In this document: positions 21,675-59,939 of the stretch, piece after piece | How the letters are laid out: every line of letters starts with the position of its first letter | Position numbering within the stretch: position 1 is the stretch's first letter | Assembly: GCA_964016885.1 (NCBI GenBank) | Contig: OZ024741.1 | Coordinates: forward strand, 299,150,001-299,214,000 | Length of the DNA: 64,000 nucleotides | Origin: Eledone cirrhosa | Lineage: Eukaryota | Reading direction: 5' to 3' | The notes under the pieces: generated by a model | Databases searched by the model: none | What the model was told of the DNA's origin: nothing | The model's input: the letters and a program-made list of their open reading frames with translations, nothing else | Position numbers and translations under genes: made by a program

Positions 21675-21680
<6 letters not shown>

Positions 21681-24600
21681 ATAAATGCTCTGAAATAGCG
21701 ATATATATGTGAATATAGACATAGAATATTCGAAAATATTCTGTATGTTTATAATAAACATTTTGAAGACCTAATCGCTATAGAATAGAATACGTCACGT
21801 ATTACAATTAGATTCTCGATAAAAGCAAGGGAAGTAATCTACGCGTTTCATTCTCGTTAGAAATCATCAGGACTACATATCCAGTGCTTTTATCGAGAAT
21901 GACACAGCTAGAGACTTATAGAATACTTAGCTGTGTACAGGAACTGGTTTGAAAGAGCGGTTGCCGGTCCGGCAGAAATTAGAAATTGGAATAAATGCTC
22001 TGAAATAGCGATATATATGTGAATATAGACATAGAATATTCGAAAATATTCTGTATGTTTATAATAAACATTTTGAAGACCTAATCGCTATAGAATAGAA
22101 TACGTCACGTATTACAATTAGATTCTCGATAAAAGCAAGGGAAGTAATCTACGCGTTTCATTCTCGTTAGAAATCATCAGGACTACATATCCAGTGCTTT
22201 TATCGAGAATGACACAGCTAGAGACTTATAGAATACTTAGCTGTGTACAGGAACTGGTTTGAAAGAGCGGTTGCCGGTCCGGCAGAAATTAGAAATTGGA
22301 ATAAATGCTCTGAAATAGCGATATATATGTGAATATAGACATAGAATATTCGAAAATATTCTGTATGTTTATAATAAACATTTTGAAGACCTAATCGCTA
22401 TAGAATAGAATACGTCACGTATTACAATTAGATTCTCGATAAAAGCAAGGGAAGTAATCTACGCGTTTCATTCTCGTTAGAAATCATCAGGACTACATAT
22501 CCAGTGCTTTTATCGAGAATGACACAGCTAGAGACTTATAGAATACTTAGCTGTGTACAGGAACTGGTTTGAAAGAGCGGTTGCCGGTCCGGCAGAAATT
22601 AGAAATTGGAATAAATGCTCTGAAATAGCGATATATATGTGAATATAGACATAGAATATTCGAAAATATTCTGTATGTTTATAATAAACATTTTGAAGAC
22701 CTAATCGCTATAGAATAGAATACGTCACGTATTACAATTAGATTCTCGATAAAAGCAAGGGAAGTAATCTACGCGTTTCATTCTCGTTAGAAATCATCAG
22801 GACTACATATCCAGTGCTTTTATCGAGAATGACACAGCTAGAGACTTATAGAATACTTAGCTGTGTACAGGAACTGGTTTGAAAGAGCGGTTGCCGGTCC
22901 GGCAGAAATTAGAAATTGGAATAAATGCTCTGAAATAGCGATATATATGTGAATATAGACATAGAATATTCGAAAATATTCTGTATGTTTATAATAAACA
23001 TTTTGAAGACCTAATCGCTATAGAATAGAATACGTCACGTATTACAATTAGATTCTCGATAAAAGCAAGGGAAGTAATCTACGCGTTTCATTCTCGTTAG
23101 AAATCATCAGGACTACATATCCAGTGCTTTTATCGAGAATGACACAGCTAAGTATTCTATAAGTCTCTAGCTGTGTCATTCTCGATAAAAGCACTGGATA
23201 TGTAGTCCTGATGATTTCTAACGAGAATGAAACGCGTAGATTACTTCCCTTGCTTTTATCGAGAATCTAATTGTAATACGTGACGTATTCTATTCTATAG
23301 CGATTAGGTCTTCAAAATGTTTATTATAAACATACAGAATATTTTCGAATATTCTATGTCTATATTCACATATATATCGCTATTTCAGAGCATTTATTCC
23401 AATTTCTAATTTCTGCCGGACCGGCAACCGCTCTTTCAAACCAGTTCCTGTACACAGCTAAGTATTCTATAAGTCTCTAGCTGTGTCATTCTCGATAAAA
23501 GCACTGGATATGTAGTCCTGATGATTTCTAACGAGAATGAAACGCGTAGATTACTTCCCTTGCTTTTATCGAGAATCTAATTGTAATACGTGACGTATTC
23601 TATTCTATAGCGATTAGGTCTTCAAAATGTTTATTATAAACATACAGAATATTTTCGAATATTCTATGTCTATATTCACATATATATCGCTATTTCAGAG
23701 CATTTATTCCAATTTCTAATTTCTGCCGGACCGGCAACCGCTCTTTCAAACCAGTTCCTGTACACAGCTAAGTATTCTATAAGTCTCTAGCTGTGTCATT
23801 CTCGATAAAAGCACTGGATATGTAGTCCTGATGATTTCTAACGAGAATGAAACGCGTAGATTACTTCCCTTGCTTTTATCGAGAATCTAATTGTAATACG
23901 TGACGTATTCTATTCTATAGCGATTAGGTCTTCAAAATGTTTATTATAAACATACAGAATATTTTCGAATATTCTATGTCTATATTCACATATATATCGC
24001 TATTTCAGAGCATTTATTCCAATTTCTAATTTCTGCCGGACCGGCAACCGCTCTTTCAAACCAGTTCCTGTACACAGCTAAGTATTCTATAAGTCTCTAG
24101 CTGTGTCATTCTCGATAAAAGCACTGGATATGTAGTCCTGATGATTTCTAACGAGAATGAAACGCGTAGATTACTTCCCTTGCTTTTATCGAGAATCTAA
24201 TTGTAATACGTGACGTATTCTATTCTATAGCGATTAGGTCTTCAAAATGTTTATTATAAACATACAGAATATTTTCGAATATTCTATGTCTATATTCACA
24301 TATATATCGCTATTTCAGAGCATTTATTCCAATTTCTAATTTCTGCCGGACCGGCAACCGCTCTTTCAAACCAGTTCCTGTACACAGCTAAGTATTCTAT
24401 AAGTCTCTAGCTGTGTCATTCTCGATAAAAGCACTGGATATGTAGTCCTGATGATTTCTAACGAGAATGAAACGCGTAGATTACTTCCCTTGCTTTTATC
24501 GAGAATCTAATTGTAATACGTGACGTATTCTATTCTATAGCGATTAGGTCTTCAAAATGTTTATTATAAACATACAGAATATTTTCGAATATTCTATGTC

Positions 24601-26154
24601 TATATTCACATATATATCGCTATTTCAGAGCATTTATTCCAATTTCTAATTTCTGCCGGACCGGCAACCGCTCTTTCAAACCAGTTCCTGTACACAGCTA
24701 AGTATTCTATAAGTCTCTAGCTGTGTCATTCTCGATAAAAGCACTGGATATGTAGTCCTGATGATTTCTAACGAGAATGAAACGCGTAGATTACTTCCCT
24801 TGCTTTTATCGAGAATCTAATTGTAATACGTGACGTATTCTATTCTATAGCGATTAGGTCTTCAAAATGTTTATTATAAACATACAGAATATTTTCGAAT
24901 ATTCTATGTCTATATTCACATATATATCGCTATTTCAGAGCATTTATTCCAATTTCTAATTTCTGCCGGACCGGCAACCGCTCTTTCAAACCAGTTCCTG
25001 TACACAGCTAAGTATTCTATAAGTCTCTAGCTGTGTCATTCTCGATAAAAGCACTGGATATGTAGTCCTGATGATTTCTAACGAGAATGAAACGCGTAGA
25101 TTACTTCCCTTGCTTTTATCGAGAATCTAATTGTAATACGTGACGTATTCTATTCTATAGCGATTAGGTCTTCAAAATGTTTATTATAAACATACAGAAT
25201 ATTTTCGAATATTCTATGTCTATATTCACATATATATCGCTATTTCAGAGCATTTATTCCAATTTCTAATTTCTGCCGGACCGGCAACCGCTCTTTCAAA
25301 CCAGTTCCTGTACACAGCTAAGTATTCTATAAGTCTCTAGCTGTGTCATTCTCGATAAAAGCACTGGATATGTAGTCCTGATGATTTCTAACGAGAATGA
25401 AACGCGTAGATTACTTCCCTTGCTTTTATCGAGAATCTAATTGTAATACGTGACGTATTCTATTCTATAGCGATTAGGTCTTCAAAATGTTTATTATAAA
25501 CATACAGAATATTTTCGAATATTCTATGTCTATATTCACATATATATCGCTATTTCAGAGCATTTATTCCAATTTCTAATTTCTGCCGGACCGGCAACCG
25601 CTCTTTCAAACCAGTTCCTGTACACAGCTAAGTATTCTATAAGTCTCTAGCTGTGTCATTCTCGATAAAAGCACTGGATATGTAGTCCTGATGATTTCTA
25701 ACGAGAATGAAACGCGTAGATTACTTCCCTTGCTTTTATCGAGAATCTAATTGTAATACGTGACGTATTCTATTCTATAGCGATTAGGTCTTCAAAATGT
25801 TTATTATAAACATACAGAATATTTTCGAATATTCTATGTCTATATTCACATATATATCGCTATTTCAGAGCATTTATTCCAATTTCTAATTTCTGCCGGA
25901 CCGGCAACCGCTCTTTCAAACCAGTTCCTGTACACAGCTAAGTATTCTATAAGTCTCTAGCTGTGTCATTCTCGATAAAAGCACTGGATATGTAGTCCTG
26001 ATGATTTCTAACGAGAATGAAACGCGTAGATTACTTCCCTTGCTTTTATCGAGAATCTAATTGTAATACGTGACGTATTCTATTCTATAGCGATTAGGTC
26101 TTCAAAATGTTTATTATAAACATACAGAATATTTTCGAATATTCTATGTCTATA

Positions 26155-26158
<4 letters not shown>
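21675..26158. repeat. 310-bp tandem array with central inversion (retrozyme array): ~4.8 units in one orientation (21675-23150) plus ~9.7 units inverted (23151-26158)
   Basis: Period is 310 (tgaaatagcg at 21691, 22001, 22311, 22621, 22931; tacacagcta at 23451, 23761 ... 25931). Units look identical by eye. (TA)n on both flanks. Confidence 0.97.
23178..23266 (+). ncRNA. Minimal type I hammerhead ribozyme (representative; 10 copies on + with cores at 23208+310n, 5 copies on - at 21864+310n)
   Basis: GTAGTC(23202-07)-CTGATGA(23208-14)-t TTCT aacg AGAA t-GAAA(23229-32)-CGCG-TA|(23238)-GATTAC. Helix I is extended by a 16-bp stem attctcgataaaagca/tgcttttatcgagaat. Helix III is the palindromic ACGCGU. 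Confidence 0.9.
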
Positions 26159-26194
<36 letters not shown>

Positions 26195-36882: not shown

Positions 36883-37029
36883 ATAGATTTATAGTAATCA
36901 TTTACGTGTACTGCTTCGAGGCAAATAACTTTGTGTCTACTCTGGGATTTATACATAATCTTACTTATTGAGTACGATTAGATGCAACCAGTACTAGCAG
37001 AGAATCCCTATACCTGTCCTGTTAAACCC

Positions 37030-37273
37030 TATTATTATTATTGTTCTTTGAGTCTCAGTCATTGATGTTATTTAACTGGAAATTTTGTTGAAATGAATAT
37101 CAAGTCACTACCTGCAGCCTCAGATATGCAGGACGTTAGGGAGGGTTCTTGCTGTTCCCAGCAAGCATGCCTTTTGAGGTGTTCCAAACAACGGGGCTGG
37201 ACTAATCTTCTTTAACCATTCTTGGAAACTCTTTGAGATAGTACCTAGTGCGCCGATGAAAATCGGGACGACC
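37030..37273 (-). mobile_element. R4/Dong LINE family B 3' fragment
   Basis: VVPIFIGALGTI..QKACLLGTARTL; matches 38700-38930; (TAA)n tail. Confidence 0.88.
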
Positions 37274-37912
37274 TTATTATTATTATTATTACAGTTGCAT
37301 TTATCTTGCTTTATGTTCATAGGAGTTATCACCAAGTCACAACCAGTGACCTCTCAAGAGACAACAAGGTCCGCCATGTTCAAGAAAGAACATACATACA
37401 CACACATGCATCTTTAGGTGTTTAGACTTGTGATGTACTTATATTGACAGAATCTTCCTTAGTATATGGGCAGTTCCTATTAGTAATATCTTTTGTATTT
37501 CTCCTATAAGTGGGCTTCCAGGGATTTGCGATAAGTAATCATTAGACCCCTTAGGTATCATTCCTAGAGCGCCTACAACCACTGGTATTGTTTTAGTTCT
37601 CAACTGCCACATTTTTCAAAATTCTATGAGGGTCTTTATACTTGCTGAATTTTTCAAATGTTTTTATAGATATATTCTTGTCTATTGGAACGGACATATC
37701 AATTAGCAGGTATACCTTCTTTTTAAAGTCCTTCAGTATTATATCAGTTATATTTGGATTTTTTTCGGTCTGTTTGGATGCTAAAGTTCCACAATATTGA
37801 GATGCGATCTTTTTCAAGTACGGGAGATGGTTGATGCTCCCACCAGTTCTTTTGACGGGGCAGGTCAAAATGATTACATATTATCCAATATGTGTATTGT
37901 GCAGCTCTGTCG
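37274..37912 (-). mobile_element. R4/Dong LINE family A 3' fragment
   Basis: Reverse complement of ~10840-11460 (LLIDMSVPIDKNISIKTFEK); (TAA)n tail at 37274-37290. Confidence 0.9.
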
Positions 37913-38126
37913 TAACAATGCTGGTAACAATGATGAAGTGGTGGCGGTGGTGATGGGATAGTGGTACTGTAATGATGGCGTTGTCGCTACTGAATTCTGT
38001 TGAATAGATTGTAGCTAGTATGCGTTTGCTTGATGTGTATATCTATGCGGTTTGTCGCCTGCTTAATATTTCCTTAATATTTGAATTAAACATTTTGAGG
38101 AAACTTGAGATACAATAATAATGATA

Positions 38127-38296
38127 ATTGTACCTACTTATGGCACAAGGCCAGCAATTACTCAGTACATTACTGGTACTTTATTTTATCGACCCCGTAA
38201 GGATGAAAGGCAAAGTTAACCTCGGCGGGATTTGAACTCAGAATGGCAAGGGCCGTTAAAGCATGGTGTCCCACCCTCTACCGATACTGCCAATCC
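38127..38296 (-). mobile_element. SINE, same family as 43681-43897
   Basis: Core, tail and head are present. Confidence 0.85.
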
Positions 38297-38665
38297 AATG
38301 CTGGGATTGGTGGTGGTGAAATTGCCGTCATCTGGCTGTTTTATTTAGTGTTATGTGGTGTATCTAGGTTGTGATGGTGAAAATATCGTTATTTGGCTGT
38401 TCTATTTAGTGTAGACAGAGTGAGTTTTCTTCCATTTATAACCATTTTCTTTTTTTTTATATAAAAAAATTTCTAATACAAAATTGAATATTTGAGCCAT
38501 ATGTCAGGCTGTTATGGGTACCTATTTCCTGGGAGCGAAGACTGGTGCCTTATGTCCCATTTGTACTAAGAATTGTTATATAACAATTGTTTTAAATATG
38601 TTAAAAATCAAAACCTTACTGGAGCGATTCCATAACACTCTATCCACCACGTGCTTCTCCTTCCC

Positions 38666-40490
38666 TTTATTGTTATTATTATTATTATTATTGTTATTAC
38701 TCTTTGAGTCTCAGTCATTGATGTTAGTTAACTGGAAAGTTTGTTGAGATGAATATCAAGCCACTACCTGCAGCCTCAGATATTCAGGACGTATCGGAGG
38801 GTTCTTGCTGTTCCCGGCAAGCATGCCTTTTGAAGCGTTCCAAAAAGCGTGAAGGGGCCAATTTTCTTTAACCATCCCTGGAAACTTTTTGAGATAGTCC
38901 CTAGTGCGCCTATGACAATCGGGATCACTTTGACTTCATGGCAGTTCCAAATCCTTTTTACCTCCCACTTTAAGTCCTGGTATCGGTTAATTTTCTCCCT
39001 CTACTTCTCTTGCACTCTCGTGTCGAAAGGGCAGGCTACATCCACAATCAGGCACGATCTTTTTCTTTGTCCAAAACCACTAGGTCAGGTCTATTGTGTT
39101 CCAGTTTCTTGTCCGTCTGTATCCTAATATCCCACAGCACCTTCACCTGATCGTTTTCTATCACCGCCTCTGGCTTATGCTCATACCACTTCTCAGAATG
39201 TGGTAAATTGTTTACTTTGCATAGGTGCCAGTGGATCACCCTGCTCATCAAATCATGTCTCCAGCCCTTATAGTGAGTCTGGGCTAGGTGTTTACACTCG
39301 GATACAATGTGAGCCACAGTCTCCTCTCTCTCTCCACAGATCCTGCACAGTGGGCTAGCCTCCTCCTTGTAAATGTGGTGTTTCAACCACTTCGTTTTGA
39401 GGGCCTGCTCCTGCGCAGCCATTAACATTCCTTCTGTAGCCTTTTTAAGGTCTCCTCTTTTCAACCAGTTCCATCTCTGTGGATCTCTAAATTCAGTTTT
39501 CTCAAAGAAGGTACTATGAAGGGATTTTTCCTGAAGGCTTCTCTTACTCCTTGATGTTATTTCCTCCTTGGACATCCCCTGGCCTATTGTCCCCTCCTTC
39601 AGTACAGTTCTGAGCATTGGCTCCTTACTATCAGTCACGTATTTGTGTAGGTTGTTTTTCTCCATCTGAACACAGTCCTCTATGCTGATAAGACCTCTTC
39701 CACCCTCAGATCTCCTTAAGTAGAGTCTATCGACATCACTCCTCTTGTGGAACATATTGTTGATAGTCAATAGCTTTCTAGTCTTCCTATCCATTTCTTT
39801 CTGTTCAGCAACATTCCATCTTAGAATTCCCGCACTGTACCTAATAATAGACACAGCTCGGGAATTTACTTTACTTATGGCATTCCTACTGTTCAGATGT
39901 GACTTTAATACGCTCCTTACTCTCCGAAGGTATTCAGTTCTTATCAATTCCTTCATTTTTTTGTTCTTGATGTCATCAGCCTCCAGAACGCCCAAATACT
40001 TGTATCCTTCCTCAGAGTCAATTTCTTTTATCATCTCACCTGTTGGTATCTGGATTCCGTTACTTCTGCTCAAATTACCCCTCCTCATGACAATGACTCC
40101 ACACTTACTAATACCAAATTGCATACATATATCATTGCTGAAAATACGGACAGTGTCAACAAGCATATCCAACTCCTTCTCACTCTTCCCGAAGAGCTTA
40201 AGATCGTTCATGAAGAGGAGGTGATTGATGGTAAGCCCTCCCTTTCCCAACCTGTATCCTGCTCTCACTTTTCGCAGTACACTGGTCAGGGGCATCAGGG
40301 CAAGGACAAACAACAGAGGGGACAGACTATCTCCCTGGAAGATACCTCTCTTGATCTTCACGCTTCCCAAGGATTCTCCAGTTGATGTTAACTCTGTTTC
40401 CCAGGACTTCATACTTTTGCCCAACAACTGCCTGATGTTATCTGCCACCTTGAAGATCTCCAGGCTTTTGGTGATCCAAGAATGAGGCAT
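38666..40490 (-). mobile_element. R4/Dong-clade (RLE) non-LTR retrotransposon, family B, 5'-truncated
   Basis: ORF 39048-40490: PHSWI, GIFQGDSLSPLLF, HLLFMNDLKL, YKYLGV, RLYLRRSEGGRGL, AAQEQ, CRICGEREETVAHIVSEC, RHD, NRPD. (TAA)n tail at ~38666-38699. Confidence 0.95.
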
Positions 40491-42864
40491 AGGGTCATCC
40501 AGATTATATCTAGATAGAGTATTTTGTAGGGAAATAGATAGGTCTAGCATAGGCTGTCCACAACTCAAGATAGTAAGATACACGGAAAACAAATTCGTGA
40601 TCTGTGTGCTTGACTTAGATAGGCTTCATAGACGAGGACCCGGCTACTGGAAGCTAAACGCGTCCTTACCAGCGCGCAAGGCCTACAGAGACCGGATTAG
40701 CGAACTAGTTAAGCGAGCGTTGACGGGGGCCATCGTCAACAACAAGTGGTGGTTTGCTCTGAAAAGAGCAATTAGAATAGAGTCCATTAGGTTTAATAAG
40801 GCTTTAGCAATAGAGAAAAATAGAGCAGAGGGAGAATTAGTTAGAATATTAGACGAGGCGCTTAGCAAAGGCATCGCGACCGACGTACTTGCGGCGAAAT
40901 TGGCCCTTGACCAATTCTTAAATGCAAAGCACGAAGGCTGCATTGTCAGAGCTAGGGTGCGTGCTCTCAGACACGAGAGGACGAAAGCCGTTCAATGGGC
41001 CCGAGTGGCGGAGGCGCTTCGTGGCAATAAAGCCACCATCCGGTCTTTGGTGGACCACGACATCTGCTCTGTAGTGAGAGTGAACGGTCACCTTTCGGAA
41101 CCGTTCAACATCATGCGCTCGGTCCGCCAAGGATGTCCCCTCTCGTCCCTATTGTACGTATTGACTCTCGAGCCATTACTGCACAAACTGGAGACGTTGA
41201 GGGGGGGGGGGTCCCGCGCTAACTAGAATGCGGAAGATCCGTGTCAGCATATGCGGACGATGTCACCGTAGTGGTGTCGAACGCCAAACACATCGAGGCG
41301 ATCGGCACTCCACTAAGAGAATACGAAGCGGTGACAGGAGCAATGATCAGCCTGGAAAAGTCAGTGGGCCTGCAGCTCGGCACCTGGAGAGGCAGGTCCA
41401 TGCCGTCCAACAGCGTCGTCGGGCGCTGGACGGACGGACCGGTAAAATTGCTAGGGGTCTGGTTCGGTCCAGACCTCCAGACGGACAAAAACTGGGACGA
41501 GGTGACGAGCAGGGTGGCTTCTCTCACCCAGAAATGGGCCGAGAGGAAGCTATCCCTGAAAGGTCGAGCGGAGGTGGCTAACGCGTACATCCCGTCCGTC
41601 ATCTACTACCGCCTGACCGTCGTACCTTGTCCTAAGCCCCGCCTGACTGCGCTGGAGCGTTTGCTCTTTCGCTTCTTGTGGAAGAGACGCGCTCCGATGG
41701 TCAGGCGGTCCATCTGCTGTCAACACCCGCTACGTGGAGGGCTGGGCATGCCGTGGCCGATGATGCGCAGACACGCGCTCAGGCTACGACATCTCCACCT
41801 CTTCCTCGACGGTGATCAGGTGTGGTCGCCGTTTGCTAGACACGTTTTTCCCCAGCTCGTCTCCTTGACGGAGTTGCAGTCCTGGGTCAAGCGAAGATCG
41901 AGAGGGAGCGCCTGGAGATTGGAATGTCTTCAGGCGCTCATAGCCCTCGACCAATCGGGCAATGTGGTCGGTGGAAACTCCACCTTGGCGTTCTATAGGG
42001 GATTAGTGGAGGGTAAGAGCGACGACGTACTTGGAGAAACTCTAGGCGTCGACGAAAATCAACTAGCCAATCTCTTCGGAAGGACTTTCGGGCCGGGGCC
42101 TATGGACAACTTCCAGAAATCCCTGGCCTGGCAGTGCTACCGGGGAGCTTTGCCAGTTCGGGATAAACTCTACAGGCATGGAGGTGCCGTCAGCCAGGCT
42201 TGTCCGAGATGCGCACAGGGCGACGAAACCGTCCTGCACGCAGTCGTCCAGTGTCCGAGCATTGCTGACTTGTGGGTTTATGTCGAACACCTGCTGTCAC
42301 GTGTAGAACGGATCCAGCTATCAGCTGAGTCCATTATGAGGATTGCCCCGCCCTCTTCCTTTAGCCGGGAAGGGCAGGAAGTTTTTATTTGTCTGGTGGC
42401 CATGGCGAAAAAGATAGTATGGTGACACGTTTGAAAGGGCTGAAGACGAGCACTTACCTCTTCGGTGATGCCCTGATTAACTTTTTCAAATTTCATTTGA
42501 AAAGGAAAATCAGGGTAGAGAGGGAAGTGCTCTCTTCCCAGCATTTTGTTGAAAGATGGATGAGAGAAGCAAGTATGGCCCGAATGAATGGGCCTTCTCT
42601 GAGTATGTGTCTGTAAATTAAGGGTGGAAAACTGGGAGAGGGCACTTTCCCTTATGGTCAGGGTCACTGTGGTCTTTTAATGGGCTTTCTCCACAAATGT
42701 CCCTCGGAAGTTTCCCCCCTATTGGGGAATTTTTCCTTGTTATTTTATTACATCCTCTGTTTTTTTACACGCAAAAATGCCCATTTGTACCGTCCTGTAT
42801 TGTACTGTACTGTCCTTAATGTCTACTTTATGTAAACCCTTGTGGTTAATAAAGAAAACATTAC
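40491..42864 (+). mobile_element. Tx1/L1-clade LINE subfamily A, 5'-truncated in the APE domain, with an internal deletion at ~41060
   Basis: Near-identical to the reverse complement of 5089-8052. GYWKLN, RQGCPLS, YADD, zf-RVT; AATAAA at 42848; (TTA)n at 42891-42920. Confidence 0.95.
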
Positions 42865-42889
42865 TGGTAGGAGTTTTATTGGTAGTTCC

Positions 42890-42953
<64 letters not shown>

Positions 42954-42957
42954 TATT

Positions 42958-43011
<54 letters not shown>

Positions 43012-43015
<4 letters not shown>

Positions 43016-43089
43016 TATTGGTGCTCTGAAATAGCGATGTATGCATGAATGTATGTATAGTATATTTGGCAATATACCGAGCACCAATA

Positions 43090-43093
<4 letters not shown>
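43012..43093. repeat. Short fragment related to the 310-bp retrozyme unit, with inverted ends
   Basis: tgctctgaaatagcgat is shared with the array unit; taagtattggtgctc...gagcaccaatactta; (TA)n on both sides. Confidence 0.7.
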
Positions 43094-43160
<67 letters not shown>

Positions 43161-43168
43161 ATATATAT

Positions 43169-43650
43169 ATTGGGTTGGACAGAAAATCCCATCTGTCATT
43201 TAAAAGGAGCTAATTTGGTAGAGTTTTCTTGTAATATTGAAGGTTGCGCATGCTTACAAATATCGGAAGTGACGTTGGTACGCACCATGTACATTTCTCA
43301 TTTTTTTTTTGTTACGGTGTTAAATGGGAAGCAACATGGAGCTATCCCATTCGTTCATTCGTTTCTGTTTAGTTTATGACTTAAATCTGGCTTAAACGCG
43401 GCAGAATCGAGGTCTTTGCATTAACAATGCATTTGGGGCATACGCCAGGGACTGGTTGGCACGCTTCCCTTCCGGTGATTATAGTCTTGAAAATCAACCT
43501 TTCACCGGACGCCCGTCCGGTTTCAATGACGAGCAGCTGCGTGATCAGGTGGAAGCTGACCCACGCCGGACATCGCCTCAACTCCTCGAAGTGTGGGTCA
43601 TCGAAAACAACCATCCACAATCACCTACATGCAATAGGGAAACGATGTAA
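43169..43650 (+). mobile_element. Mariner 5' fragment (second family), degenerate
   Basis: TA|ttgggttggacagaaa TIR-like start; RFPSGDYSLENQPFTGRPSGFNDEQL..VEADPRRT..HNHLHAIGK HTH region. Confidence 0.8.
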
Positions 43651-43680
43651 ATTTTATTCTTATATTTACTGCATTATCCA

Positions 43681-43897
43681 GGGCGGTGGATTGGCAGTAT
43701 CGGTAGAGGGACTCCGCTTTGACGCATAGAGTGACGGTCCTTTATGATCTGTGTTCAATTCCCGCCGAGGTTAACTTTGCCTTTCATCCTTACGGGGTCG
43801 ATAAAATAAAGTACCAGTCACGCACTGGGGTCGATTTAATGGACTTTCCCCTCCCGCAAAAATTGCTGGCCTTGTGCCTATATAAGAAACAATTATT
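43681..43897 (+). mobile_element. Full-length tRNA-derived SINE with (ATT)n tail
   Basis: A-box TGGCAGTATCGG (~43692), B-box GTTCAATTCC (~43753), a conserved central domain and a 3' ggccttgtgcctatataagaaacaattatt. Further copies at ~16015, 27623, 44180, 45410 and 60090. Confidence 0.85.
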
Positions 43898-46800
43898 ACT
43901 GCATTATCCAATGTGTATTTTCGTTTAAAGCTGCGGGAGATTTGGCAGCTCGTTTCTAGTAGGCTTAGCGAATACTGAGAAACGCACTTGTTGGCTCGTA
44001 ATAAATGACTAGGGATGTATGGAAGTATATTTCATTGGCAGTATGCAACCCATACACAATTCTAGCTTTGTGCTAACGTTAGAGTTCAGTAAATTAATAT
44101 ATACTGTATATCAGTATTAGAATTTTTCTTAACAAAGATGCTTTACATACTGATTTCAAATTGGATGAAAAGTAAGGGATCGTCGATTAAAGCGTCCACA
44201 GTACTTGACTGGTACTTTCTTTTATCGACTCCGGAGTGAACAAAAGGGAAAGCTGACTTTAGCAAGATTTGAACTAAAAACTTTAAGAGCCGTAAGTAAA
44301 TGCTCTAAAGCATTCTGTCAAACGCTCTAATGATTCTGTCAACCACCGCCCTCAGATCTAGCATGTAATAAAGTGTAATCTTATTCAGTGCAGTGGAATA
44401 TCTAGGTAGTGATAATGTCATTTCATTTTGAGCATTTTGGAAGATTTCCTTATTCGTGATATTCTATTGCTTTGAAGTTTACACATGGCTTAAATCGATG
44501 TATCTTAGTCATTGCTTTGGACTTGATAAAACAATCCCAATGATAAGTGTGGGCGTAACTAATCTGCAAACACACACGAACGACTTATCTAAACGATGAT
44601 ATGTTGAAATATTTGGTGATAAAAAACTCCATCCGGTTGGCTTCATGATGGCTTAGCTTTCGTTTCTATTTAATTATCGATATAACCCCTTTCAGGCATG
44701 ATATTTGGACATTGGGAGGGGGCCACAACTTCCACAATCATATTACACAACCAACCTTTCAACAACTGTGAGTTTTAGATGAGTGAAATTAAGTTATCTG
44801 TTATCTGTTGATAAAGATTGGCAGAATATATTTCAATCCTGATGTTGTAAGTTAAATATAAAGCATCTACGCAGATAGTGGTAAACACACACTTGCGGGA
44901 ATAGTAATCTATAAACAGCTACAAACATACACACACACATAAACATACACATACATACACACACAAACGTACACACGCATGCAATGTATGCCCATGCATG
45001 CACAACGCAGAAAAACAAAAGGTGGAGTGAAAAAGATGGAGTATCTGGAGCCGGTGAGAAAGTCGAAATGACGGTAAACATGTCATTGATAAGTTTACAG
45101 AATATATGAAAAAAGAGCCTACCGAATTTGGTAAATACCCATTTGCTTATGTAACCAACCGACGAATAGGCTAGTTATCAAATTAATTATTACTAATATA
45201 AGTACACGAAGCGGGAAAATCGAATAGATCGACCGTAATACTTTCCTAGCAATTTATTTTAACCACCCCTAAATGTATGGCAGTTAAAATTGAGCTCTGT
45301 TTTATTTGAACTCAGAACGTAAAGAGCAATAACAAAGCATTTGGTCGACGCTCTCGAGATTCTGCCAATCCTCCTCCCAATATATTGAATTTTAATTTAG
45401 GCACAAAACCAAGGAATTTCTTTCGGGGGATGGGCAAAGTTGAGTAAATCAACTCCAGTGTTTGAATGGTACTTTATGTTATGAATCACCCGAAGGCTGA
45501 AAGACAAAATTAATGTCAACGGGATTTGAACTAAGAACGTTAAAATCCGGGAAGAAAACCTCAAATCATTTTTTTCTTTAAGACTCTTACGGTTTTGCCA
45601 ATCCATCGCTCTCATTGTTACCCGAATTGTAAATAATAAACAAACACTGAAATGAAACTCAACTGCAACATGTCTTATATGGCCACTTGGTCCTATCAAA
45701 ATATAACGACGTCTTTGCTACATACAACCTTCTCTAAGTAGGTTCTCGGAACTGCTTTAGATTCTTTTAACGTAGGATGGAAACAAAACGATACTGTAAA
45801 ACAAAATATAATTATTAAAATTACAATAACCAAACTAGTATTATTCTATTGTAGTAAATAATAGAATAATCGAATTTGTATTATTCTGTAGTTATTGTTG
45901 TTTAGTCGAAATTGACTCTGATGGTACAGGTCATTGATCAAAGCAATACTACTTATGACTATCCTCTTATTATGTGGAGTCATAGTGTACCTTGTGGTAG
46001 ATCATACATTGCATACCTCCTTTATTAAGACGGTATGTCAATACGAGTGCTCGCTTGTATATCGTATCATATTGCTGTTAAATATCGTAACGCAAAATGT
46101 ATGTCCCTTGTCAGATATTACCATGATGAGATTTCTGTCCACATGTTTAGCAATATCAATTCATTTCAACCCCTACAGGGCTCAAGGGAGGTGCAGTCGA
46201 TACACTTCCTATTTTCTCCTCCTAAAATATAGAATATTTTTCATGATACACAGAAACTGTGACCGCGTGATTAAGAATTTCGTTCTCTTTGCAACCATGT
46301 GCTGACCGGATCAACTCTATAGCGCGTTACCTTGGACACTATTCTTCGATTATAACACAAAGCTACATTTATGTGGCCATATCTTCATTATTTGTTGATT
46401 CTTCATTCCAAGACTTATAACTCCATAGGTATAGCATTCCATCGTGATTGATAACTCAAGTCTTAATCTTTCTTGGATGAAATTCAATTCATTACACACA
46501 TTTTCAACAAAAGTGCTTAGTCAAAGGAAGTTACCATATACAGCATTATATAATATTATATGAAGTATTATAATATTAACTATATCTTGTGTTGTGAAAG
46601 CAAATATATTTAACAAATATACACCAGGTGCGTTGCAGTATGTTATATAGGCTATTTCAGTAATATATCAAAATCCTATGCGTGTTAACTTTCGGTTTTA
46701 ATGGATATAAACCTATAAAATAAGCATCAACAAATTACTGGGTCGATAAAATCAATAAATTATATTATTTTCTTATAAAGATCAGACATGTGCCTCTGTA

Positions 46801-56009: not shown

Positions 56010-57064
56010 CTATCTATCTAAGGCGGGTAAAATTCCCGAGATCCATGGACGAATTCTCTCCAGCGGTCTCTGTCCCTCATTATCGCTGCCATGTCCTGCA
56101 TCTCCAACAGACCAGTGTCTGTCCTGAGGGCATCAACATACGTTAACCTTGGCCTTCCTCTTCTCGTGTGTCCATGTAGGGGCTCCCAAAGGAGTACTGA
56201 GTGCAATGTCAACTCTGGATGTCGGTGAGCATGTCCACCTAACCTCAGTCTCCACTGTGTCACTTTTGAGCTGACTTTTGGGATGCTCCCATACAGCTCT
56301 GAGTTTTTCATCCTCAGTGTATACTGATTAATGTTCAGAGCCATCCTCAGCATTCTCGTGTAGCACCCATCCACCATCTGAGTGAGTTTCTTGGTCAGTG
56401 TCCAAGTCTCAGACCCATACAGCAGCACAGACTCCACTGCAGCAATGAAGAGGCGGATTTTCAGGTCTCTACGAAGGTCCGACTTCCACACCGATCTCAA
56501 GCTGTGGCACGCCGCCCAGGCCTTTCTCTTCCTCTCAACCACATCATCTTCCGTATTCCCAATCTTTGCTCCCAAATACAGGAAGTCCTCAACCAATTCC
56601 AGCGGCTTCCCGCCTACATTAGTGATCCCCTCTGGCTTCTCAACATTCTCTACCAGATATTTTGTTTTAGTCTCATTCATTCTCAGCCCCACACTCATCG
56701 ACACAGTCTCAACCTCCCGCATCAAATCCTCTGCCTCCCTCACTGTATTTGTCACCAAAACTATGTCGTCGGCAAATTCAGCATCCGATACATTTTTCGC
56801 TCTAACTCTCATGCTCTGAGCCGGTGCTACAGTAAAGCCAGAGTCCTGGTGTTTCTCCAGTGCAAGGCGCATACAATAGTCCACTACGATGATAAAAATG
56901 TAGGGAGCCAATGTATCTCCCTGGAGCACTCCAGCCAGTATCTCAAAGGACTCTGTCATCCCATCAGGTGTAATGACTTGGGCTTTGGTGTTGGTGTAGA
57001 GCAGTGATATCAGGTCCACCATCCTCTTGGGGATTCCATAAGCCTGTAAGATCTTCATCAGGCA
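56010..57064 (-). mobile_element. RTE-clade LINE, 3' half (RT domains 4-7 and C-terminus)
   Basis: MKILQAYGIP, GVLQGDTLAP, FADD, FLYLG, LLYGSETW, RGRPR..REFYPP*. Confidence 0.95.
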
Positions 57065-59281
57065 GTAACGGGAGTTCAGGAGATGTGGGGAATGTGGAGT
57101 TACCCTTTAGTTGTCATGACTCCCAGGTCTGCCCTGGCCCGGGGTGGTAGTACCTGTTAGGGTGCCATTTATGGGTTAAATAACTACCTTATTCGAGTGG
57201 CGCCGGTAAGGTATTGTCAGCCATTGAAAAGAAATATGGAGAGTCGATCTAACAGCACTAGGGTTAGAGCCCCTAATTACACTGTCAAGGAGCAGCCTGG
57301 TCGTTATGACTCTGCTGGCTTAGAGCCACAGAGAGGGCCAGTGGATGATGGATCAGCTGTCTCTGAGACAAATATAAAGAATGCAGTTTTGTCCTGCAGA
57401 AGAGCCATCACAATGGGCACTTTGAATGTGAGGACTATTCGGACGCTGGAGAAGAGAGAGGAGTTGGGACATCTGTTCAAGGAGAGTGGTATACAGATAC
57501 TTGCGATCCAAGAACACAGTATTCTACACGATGAGCCCGTGAGGAGTGTGATGATCGGGAAGAAGAGCCAGCTCATCACTACATCGGCAGTGAAGAACAC
57601 AACAAATGCTGCAGTAGGAGGAGTAGGTTTTGTGTTCAGTGCAAAAACCAATCTGTTGGTGAGGGAAATAATGCCTATCTCCCCGCGAGTGTTGAGGGTG
57701 ACCTTCAATGGAAACCCAAGACTGACAGTCATCTCAGCCTATAGGCCAACCGAGGGGGACAGTGATGTGAATGCGGAAGAGTTCCATGAAGAGGTGTGTA
57801 GAGCTGTCAACACCACTCAGGCACACACTATCCTGCTTGTTTTGGGGGACTTCAATGCACATCTGAGTAAGGAGGGCAGTGAAGATCCTTGCTGGTACTT
57901 ACATAACAACACCAACCGAAATGGAAGACTACTGAGAGACACCCTGCAGGAGGCGAACTTGATGGCGACGAACCTAAGGTTTAGGAAGAATCTGGGGAAG
58001 ATGTGGACCTACATCTCAGATATGCACCTGTCCAAGTCCCAGATTGATTTCATTCTGGTGAGGAAAAAGTGGCGGAATAGTGTTCTGAACACGGAATCAT
58101 ACAGCTATTTCAGTACACTGGGTAGTGACCACCGGCTTGTTATGAGTGAGGTCCGCGTGAGCTTAAGAAAGAGCAAGGCTCAGCCCCGGAGAACAATCTA
58201 TGACTGGGGAGCTTTCAAGGAAGATGATAAGCTACAGGAGAGGTTCACAGTGGAAGTGAGAAACAGGTTTAGTGCTCTGTGTGGAGAGTCAGAGGAGAGA
58301 GAGATTGGATGGACTGAGGAGAGTGTGAGGAGGAGGTACGGCCACTTCACCAATGCAGTGGCGGAAGCAAGTAAAACCCTGGTGCCGAGGTAAAAGAACA
58401 AAGGGAAGCACGTCAGCTCTGCAAGCCCAAAAGTGTGTGCAGCCAGAGAACACCTGAAAGCTGCCAGGGACCAATTCTATGCTGATCCTACGGAGGAGAG
58501 GATGGAGACTGTGGAGGTGATGAGGGAAGAGCTCTGTACCGCTTACACTGAGGTCAGAGAGGAGGCACTGATAGAGAAGATCAGAAGTGTGGAGAGAGCG
58601 GTTGACAGATCTGGATGTAAGGAGAGCTGGATGATCATCAACGAGATCACAGGGAGGAAGAGAAGGTGTTCGAGTCAGATCCAGGGAACGGGGCCCGAGG
58701 ATAGGAAGAGGAAATGGCTAGGCCATTTTAGGACCCTACTAGTAGAGCCACCCTCCACAGCCCAGAGCACTGGGGTGATCCGGCGGCTGTTTGAGGAACT
58801 GGATGTTGAGACAGAGCCCTTCACCAGAGAGGAGCTTCAGAGAGCCAAGAAGAGGATCAAGGAGGGCAAGGCTCATGGAGAAGATGGAGTGGCATCAGAG
58901 GTAATGAAGAGGTGTGATTTTGATGATATCATCCTGGGGTTCTGTAACGGGGCAGTGGAGAAAGGAGTTGCCCCGAATCAGTGGAGGATCAGTAACATCG
59001 TCCTAGTGCCAAAGAAGGGAGATCTCTCTAACACCAACAACTACAGGGGGATCTCACTGACGTCACTTGTGGCAAAGTCCCTCAACAGGATGATTCTTAA
59101 CAGGATCCAGCCTGAGATGGAGAAGAAGCTCAGGGACAACCAGAACGGCTTCAGAGAGGGTAGATCAACCACCAGTCACATCCTGATGCTGAGGAGGATA
59201 TTAGAGGGAGCTAGAGCAAAGTGCCTTCCTGCGGTCATGGTTTTCCTTGACTTTAGGAAGGCCTTTGATTCTGTGGACCGT
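57065..59281 (+). mobile_element. RTE-clade LINE, 5' half (5'UTR, APE, RT N-terminus), inverted relative to the 3' half
   Basis: GTLNVRT, AIQE, GDFNA, IDFIL, SDH; KGDLS..NYRGISL, QNGFR, FLDFRKAFDSVDR, then (TA)n. One stop near 58391. Confidence 0.95.
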
Positions 59282-59379
59282 ATATATATATATATACGTG
59301 TGTATAATGGTAGCTATGATGCTTACATAGGCGGTATGCCAAAATTAGCACTCAATATTCATACAGAGCAGAGTGTGGA

Positions 59380-59621
59380 TAGTATAAAAAATCGAAAAAT
59401 CAGTGATGCATCTGGACTCACTTTATTGCGTGTTACAATTGCTTCGCCGGCAGGTAACTCGAGACAAGAACACTGTATGGATCTGGCTGATTATACGGCT
59501 GCAGGTTCCGTAGAATCAGCCAGATCCATACAGTGTTCTTGTCTCGAGCTACCTGCCGGCGAAGCAATTGTAACACGCAATAAAGTGAGTCCAGATGCAT
59601 CACTGATTTTTCGTTTTTTTA

Positions 59622-59626
<5 letters not shown>
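59380..59626. repeat. Near-perfect palindrome (119-bp arms, 9-bp spacer)
   Basis: tagtataaaaaatcgaaaaatcagtgatgc...tacgg ctgcaggtt ccgta...gcatcactgatttttcgtttttttatacta; about 3 mismatches. Confidence 0.92.
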
Positions 59627-59677
<51 letters not shown>

Positions 59678-59939
59678 ATAATAATAAAATTGAAGACTAA
59701 AATCCAAATTTCATCAAGCGTAGACAAGGTATGGTTTTGGTTTAAAAACACCCTGCACTTTGTGCATACTAACTAGTGTTAACTTTTAAAGCTCGGTGCC
59801 AGTCTTAATGCTACAGATTCAGTAGAAGTTAAGAATAGTTTGGTTTAATACCGAAACAATAATTAAAATTATAATCCTCAATTCGAGAGAAAAATTGTTC
59901 ATTTTACAATGCTTTACACACCATATTCCTTCCAGATGA

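Follow-up and report, generated by a model that had tools for sequence, protein, structure and literature searches.

The locus described here lies in a 64-kb window (the whole stretch of Eledone cirrhosa DNA that was analysed, 64,000 nucleotides, on contig C2 of a 3.0-Gb genome) and consists of a 5'-truncated Dong-type element on the minus strand, termed Dong-B, whose truncated end abuts the truncated 5' end of a Tx1-type element on the plus strand (Table 1). The preliminary description of this DNA had reported the two elements as fused head to head and directly, and this was confirmed in the assembly. When the join was compared with other copies of both families, the trinucleotide GCA was found to be common to both, every other base could be assigned to one family or the other, and neither a spacer nor any untemplated base was present. 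The dinucleotide TA at 40490-40491, which was considered as untemplated bases or as the remnant of a tract, is Tx1 sequence. The Tx1 copy begins at position 2787 of the 5866 positions of its reference, at the last motif and end of the APE domain; the earlier placement of its start within that domain was thus correct, while the coordinate, given as 40492, had to be moved, since homology runs from 40487 and the GCA at 40487-40489 belongs to both elements. The Dong-B copy contains one frameshift near 39050. It had also been proposed that both outer ends meet (TTA)n, which holds for the left end but not for the right end, where a single ATTA is followed by a degenerate stretch of 26 bp. A larger array contains the pair, and two other pieces of Dong lie to its left.

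Table 1. Features at and around the Dong-B/Tx1 join, in positions of the window
Feature	Position	Strand	Remarks
Dong-B-like 3' fragment	37045..37268	-	Left piece in this microsatellite array; 89% to the 3' end of Dong-B
Dong-A 3' fragment	37293..37911	-	(TTA)6 between this fragment and the 37045..37268 piece
SINE fragment	38134..38241	-	93% to the SINE at 11.5 kb
5' end of a further Dong copy	38308..38667	-	78% to Dong-B reference 1-377
(TTA)n tract, including Dong-B-encoded tail	38667..38700	.	Tail also in most Dong-B copies
5'-truncated Dong-B: RT C-half, zinc motif, restriction-like endonuclease, 3' UTR	38701..40489	-	98% to full-length L129; RVT_1
GCA, 3-bp microhomology joining Dong-B and Tx1	40487..40489	.	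Family continuations on either side
5'-truncated Tx1, 3' end intact	40487..42860	+	96-97% to 5.9-kb full-length copies; zf-RVT
Internal Tx1 deletion junction, about 710 bp lost, 4-bp microhomology	41058..41061	+	Reference 3361 joined to 4074
Degenerate single-copy target DNA right of Tx1	42860..42889	+	Right copy of the Tx1 TSD expected in its initial 13-16 bp
(TTA)10 tract, then (TA)n	42890..42921	.	

The two families differ in their coding capacity. The full-length Dong-type copy (L129) has a single long ORF with a match to RVT_1 only and without an APE domain, and the best solved relatives of its reverse transcriptase are R2 proteins (E 1e-21, versus 1e-4 for L1). Its C-terminus shows, by eye in the translations, a zinc motif, for which the zf-RVT match was weak and below the cut-off, and a putative PD-(D/E)xK endonuclease. 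The full-length Tx1-type element has an ORF1 and an ORF2, the latter with Exo_endo_phos (APE) and RVT_1 domains, a C-terminal zf-RVT domain and similarity to L1 ORF2p at E 1e-51. The name Dong for the element with a restriction-like endonuclease (RLE) was already used in the preliminary description and is probably right. Architecture and target together suggest the clade names Dong/R4 and Tx1, the latter as opposed to L1.

Dong and Tx1 both insert into (TTA)n, but with opposed polarity, the sense strand reading TAA for Dong and TTA for Tx1. Among the loci examined, 118 of 127 Tx1 3' ends ran into TTA, while TAA came after all Dong-B (84/84) and all Dong-A (33/33) 3' ends; occasionally the tracts of Tx1 were TTC, TAC or TTG in place of TTA. 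At their 5' ends, 35 of the 39 focal Dong copies also lay on a TAA tract. Both families are abundant: the exact 3'-end motif of Dong-B occurs 9,515 times genome-wide, that of the window's Tx1 group 7,811 times, which is a lower bound on its copies, and that of another Tx1 group 2,762 times, and a TTA tract lies immediately before the Tx1-B 5' start at 2,408 places. Because Dong and Tx1 use one tract on opposite strands, they can pair only head to head or tail to tail. The preliminary description had argued that two head-to-head chimeras in 64 kb imply a mechanism, and this is borne out for the pairing, which follows from the shared (TAA)n targeting, but not for a dedicated process of fusion or co-insertion.

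The two chimeras of the window arose independently, as had been claimed, and one is not a duplication of the other, since the Dong family, the Tx1 subfamily and the breakpoints all differ. The Dong elements of the present case and of the case at 5-11.5 kb have 41% amino-acid identity over 85 aa, the Tx1 subfamilies are 88-90% identical in DNA, and the join at 5-11.5 kb, which lies at other breakpoints, looks blunt. No further copy of the junction at 40487 was found: when 40 of 1100 candidates were scored, the window alone spanned it. Transposition of the chimera as a unit was therefore rejected.

A junction census, which had been suggested earlier for the whole genome, was run on 256 loci outside the window. 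Of the 73 head-to-head pairs counted there, 64 still have TTA between the elements, and nine are directly fused (12%, CI 6-22%). One locus (L109), with a gap of 124 bp between old copies, was dropped from the direct count, which was originally ten. The same loci contained 60 tail-to-tail pairs with a spacer, three without one, and two cases of neighbours in the same direction. A subset of 80 loci, chosen by position and without regard to score among the initial 82 of 100 places listed for C1, contained 30 spaced and five direct head-to-head pairs, and four of its 80 Tx1 copies were fused directly to Dong. Applied to the copies with the exact motif, which number at least 7,811, this rate extrapolates to about 390 direct joins in the genome, and our guess is that there are perhaps 1,000 when diverged copies are included. 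The Poisson expectation is that 1.6-10 windows of 64 kb have two or more fusions, before clustering is considered. Two fusions in one such window is an unusual draw and not the sign of a separate mechanism. Fused head-to-head pairs are probably an ordinary by-product that is common in this genome, and a new mechanism of joint insertion is unlikely.

This was also suggested by the junctions of Tx1 copies that have no Dong neighbour. Of 118 focal Tx1 copies that could be classified (one more ran off its locus), 40 had Dong upstream and 78 had other DNA; 18 of the latter were without a repeat, and after the removal of three misparses and one duplicate 14 of 74 remained. The misparsed copies contain an internal SINE; a SINE-headed Tx1 subfamily, considered at first, was rejected. 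Tx1 5' ends without a tract numbered 4/40 beside head-to-head Dong as against these 14/74 beside other DNA (p=0.29), and a TSD-like sequence was missing from 6/40 and 19/74, respectively (p=0.24). Both rates indicate that the left junction of Tx1 is lost at least as often without Dong as beside it. From the other side, eight of the 39 focal Dong copies have Tx1 upstream, and all eight keep TAA and none is fused.

A target-site duplication (TSD) enclosing both elements would be expected at the tail of Tx1. Tx1 TSDs of 13-16 bp, starting at the tail ATTA, were found in three copies (L045, L125 and L217), where the target is imperfect; the scan of 119 Tx1 copies flagged 15, the other 12 being matches to the tract only or very short. 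At the present locus, the first 12 bases from 42860, which would begin the left copy of such a TSD, are absent throughout 37000-42850, so the left copy has been lost and the pair as a whole is not enclosed by a TSD. The preliminary description had proposed a possible TSD in a repeat beginning with cctttatt at 38664 and 42888. The match itself is real, but it does not lie where Tx1 TSDs do, as these start at the Tx1 tail and the repeat lies 28 bp further to the right. The CCCT of the left flank is the 5' terminus of the neighbouring Dong copy at 38308-38667, and other Dong 5' starts likewise end with CCCT(T) and a tract. CCT precedes a TTA tract in 2 of 308 cases, and the match between the flanks appears to be a mild, unexplained coincidence of about 1%. 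The 26-bp stretch to the right of Tx1 occurs only once genome-wide when up to one mismatch is allowed, and its reading as a 3' transduction or as a piece of either family was rejected, because it is single-copy and the best matches in 1.44 Mb of loci reached 18 of 26. A comparison with an empty allele had also been suggested; a search of the assembly with the left flank found no second haplotype, with nothing above 84% among 41 matches, and neither an empty nor a longer allele was seen.

From these results, it is likely that Dong-B and Tx1 inserted one after the other into one TTA tract and that a deletion, mediated by microhomology, removed the spacer. In such a sequence of events, the two elements would have inserted head to head with opposite polarity, and the deletion through the 3-bp microhomology would have taken out the TTA between them together with the left Tx1 TSD and the 5' parts. 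Against this reading, some 6% of joins would show a 3-bp microhomology by chance alone. If Tx1 was once full length, the deletion at the join was at least 2.8 kb, and only one of 38 internal Tx1 deletions is that large.

The deletion could have occurred at two stages. Chances are about even that it was a later genomic event, like the 710-bp deletion within the same Tx1. Deletion after insertion is active: 38 internal deletions, spanning 42-2884 bp and differing in position, were found among 119 Tx1 copies, and more diverged copies have more of them (of 84 long copies, the younger 42 have 12 and the older 42 have 25; rho 0.26, p=0.019). Furthermore, in two of the three tail-to-tail pairs without a spacer (L206 and L229) both 3' ends are gone, which is impossible by TPRT, and therefore deletions across spacers do occur after insertion. 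However, the observed 12% of fusions exceeds the 3.8% of spacer loss expected from deletions of the internal type (p=0.002), so that later deletion at the internal rate is insufficient on its own, and there must be a contribution from deletions too large to have been detected, from the fragility of the tracts or from losses in 5' end-joining. Alternatively, and with less probability, the sequence may have been lost when the second element underwent 5' end-joining. One direct join (L222) has a Dong-type 5' duplication, which hints at joining coupled to integration.

The excess of fusions over the expectation from internal deletions would also fit co-insertion, in which both enzymes would use one break, that of Dong priming cDNA on its TTA strand and that of Tx1 on its TAA strand, before microhomology joined the two products, as twin priming with two RNAs. 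The geometry suits this, each 3' end pointing outward on its preferred strand, and insertions of two RNAs in opposite orientation have a precedent in human L1 cell models (PMC11702581). The ages of the halves do not differ significantly: private changes outside CpG sites numbered 21/1728 (1.2%) in Dong and 40/2064 (1.9%) in Tx1 (p=0.09), although such dating is confounded by subfamily structure, notably for the Tx1 at 5-11.5 kb. One fusion elsewhere (L131) joins two very young copies of equal age, with 3/915 and 2/970 private changes. In contrast, co-insertion calls for a common TSD beginning at the Tx1 3' end, which is absent, although a blunt or deleting variant of the process could lack one, and for two rare events simultaneously at one site; direct joins were not enriched beside Dong, with 0/8 among the focal Dong copies with upstream Tx1. 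Concordance in age does not set fused pairs apart either, since the halves were compatible in 6/9 fused and 31/53 spaced pairs, and two fused pairs (L137 and L161) have clearly discordant ages. Co-insertion is thus improbable for this locus. Equally doubtful is the wider proposal that some pairs without a spacer, including the join at 40487, are single integrations in which an RLE and an APE element nick one TAA tract on its two strands, either of them providing the second-strand primer for the other; if true, this would account for the roughly threefold excess of fusions and would represent cooperative integration between clades in a natural genome.

Two further explanations have very little probability. 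The flank repeat could be the true TSD of the Dong insertion alone, with the 24 bp before it being extra 5' bases and Tx1 having inserted inside later and deleted the rest. That CCTTTATT is matched on the two flanks would seldom happen by chance, by the 2/308 given above, and the 26-mer has no other copy, as expected of untemplated bases. However, none of the 39 focal Dong copies, inspected by eye, has 3'-flank bases duplicated at its 5' junction, the left CCCT is encoded by Dong, the 26-mer resembles degenerate tracts found beside other Tx1 copies, such as L045, and Tx1 looks slightly older than Dong rather than younger, a difference that was not significant. An assembly mis-join between two repeats with thousands of copies in each family is just as remote: the matches listed for contigs of four public runs are short pieces of many copies, none of which bridges 40487, but assemblers do not normally overlap unrelated sequences of opposite strands at a clean 3-bp microhomology, nine similar joins exist elsewhere, and the scaffold of 416 Mb has no N in 37500-44000.

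The arrangement of Dong-B and Tx1 resembles several known systems. In Bombyx, SART and TRAS are two non-LTR families that insert into one simple repeat, the telomeric one, in opposite orientations and form mixed arrays (PMC10088271). The likeness to Dong and Tx1 lies in the two families of opposite orientation in one simple repeat, but SART and TRAS are both APE elements of the R1 clade at telomeres, whereas here an RLE and an APE family occupy interstitial (TAA)n genome-wide. The Dong element of Bombyx mori (R4 clade) likewise has a 5' end adjoining TAA repeats and a single ORF with RT and RLE (PMC3774820). Microsatellite-specific Tx1 families are also on record (PMC4494074; PMC4640811), among them Kibi and Koshi, which are APE elements of the Tx1 type as here but belong to fish and have (TC)n and (TTC)n as targets instead of (TTA)n (PMC4494074). 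At truncated L1 5' ends, microhomology and loss of target sequence are documented (PMC4245944; PMC11702581); the present join has the truncated 5' end, the short microhomology and the loss of the TSD in common with them, but the deletions quoted for them are 0-20 bp, while the present loss took no less than the spacer and may amount to kilobases. L1 insertions from two templates in opposite orientation, including synchronous L1 bridges, similarly join two cDNAs 5' to 5' by microhomology, but they arise de novo in cells with one enzyme, L1 ORF2p, whereas the present pair involves two classes of enzyme and lacks the TSD that would be expected (PMC11702581; 10.1101/2024.08.27.596794). Literature searches, whose scope left out most subscription journals and the Repbase reports, found nothing on the pairing of Dong with Tx1.

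The junction itself is minor, being one of probably several hundred such joins. A modest interest lies in the thousands of interstitial, SART/TRAS-like arrays in which RLE and APE families use the two strands of (TAA)n, and these arrays provide a natural ruler for rates of deletion and of TSD loss. Co-insertion, if it were shown, would have a direct bearing on the way in which second-strand priming reaches completion. In Octopus vulgaris, Dong-R4 and L1-Tx1 are listed among the recently active elements (PMC13282606).

Full-length copies predominated in Tx1, accounting for 73 of the 118 focal copies among the sampled genomic loci L091-L126 and L182-L261, where tandem Tx1 arrays with TTA spacers between the copies were also present, in contrast to Dong-B, for which 37 of the 39 focal copies were 5'-truncated. 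In sequencing run X1, which carries another organism label, the Tx1 part (window 40500-42895) was present at high depth and almost no Dong-B was found at 97% likeness, which faintly suggests a greater age or a wider distribution for the Tx1 group.

The interval between ORF1 and ORF2 of Tx1 contains, at reference position 1894, a hotspot of independent SINE insertions (L114, L262-L267), and the exact junction between the SINE end and Tx1 occurred 202 times genome-wide, compared with 0 for the control. At all seven of these loci that were read, the SINE 5' ends differed from one another, and the TSD was 16-19 bp long with ATTA at its start. Because the polarity and TSD style of the SINE insertions match those of Tx1 itself, it is likely that the hotspot SINE is mobilised by Tx1.

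Tx1 copies with near-identical ORF2 and 3' ends (L091/L183, L103 and L252) fell into three or more types by their 5' ends/ORF1 regions, and these combinations suggest that 5' modules may have been swapped among Tx1 copies. At L223, two TAACCC-like units were joined to a truncated Tx1 5' end, perhaps through telomeric-repeat capture. Truncated 5' junctions at L134, L140 and L222 carried short tandem duplications of the Dong 5'-terminal bases, which resemble template jumps. Elements of the same class (Tx1-Tx1, Dong-Dong) were also joined in opposite orientation with no spacer at L095, L124, L202 and L245; the join at L095 involved two Tx1 subfamilies, while that at L124 looks like a 5' inversion.

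The window also contains a tandem array and a further LINE, presumably RTE-like.

Other repeats in the window
Feature	Position	Strand	Remarks
Tandem array	21675-26167		310-bp unit, ~14.6 copies, 99-100% identity; two TRF rows
Long ORFs of an APE-RT LINE	56018-59776	(-)	LINE of a different kind
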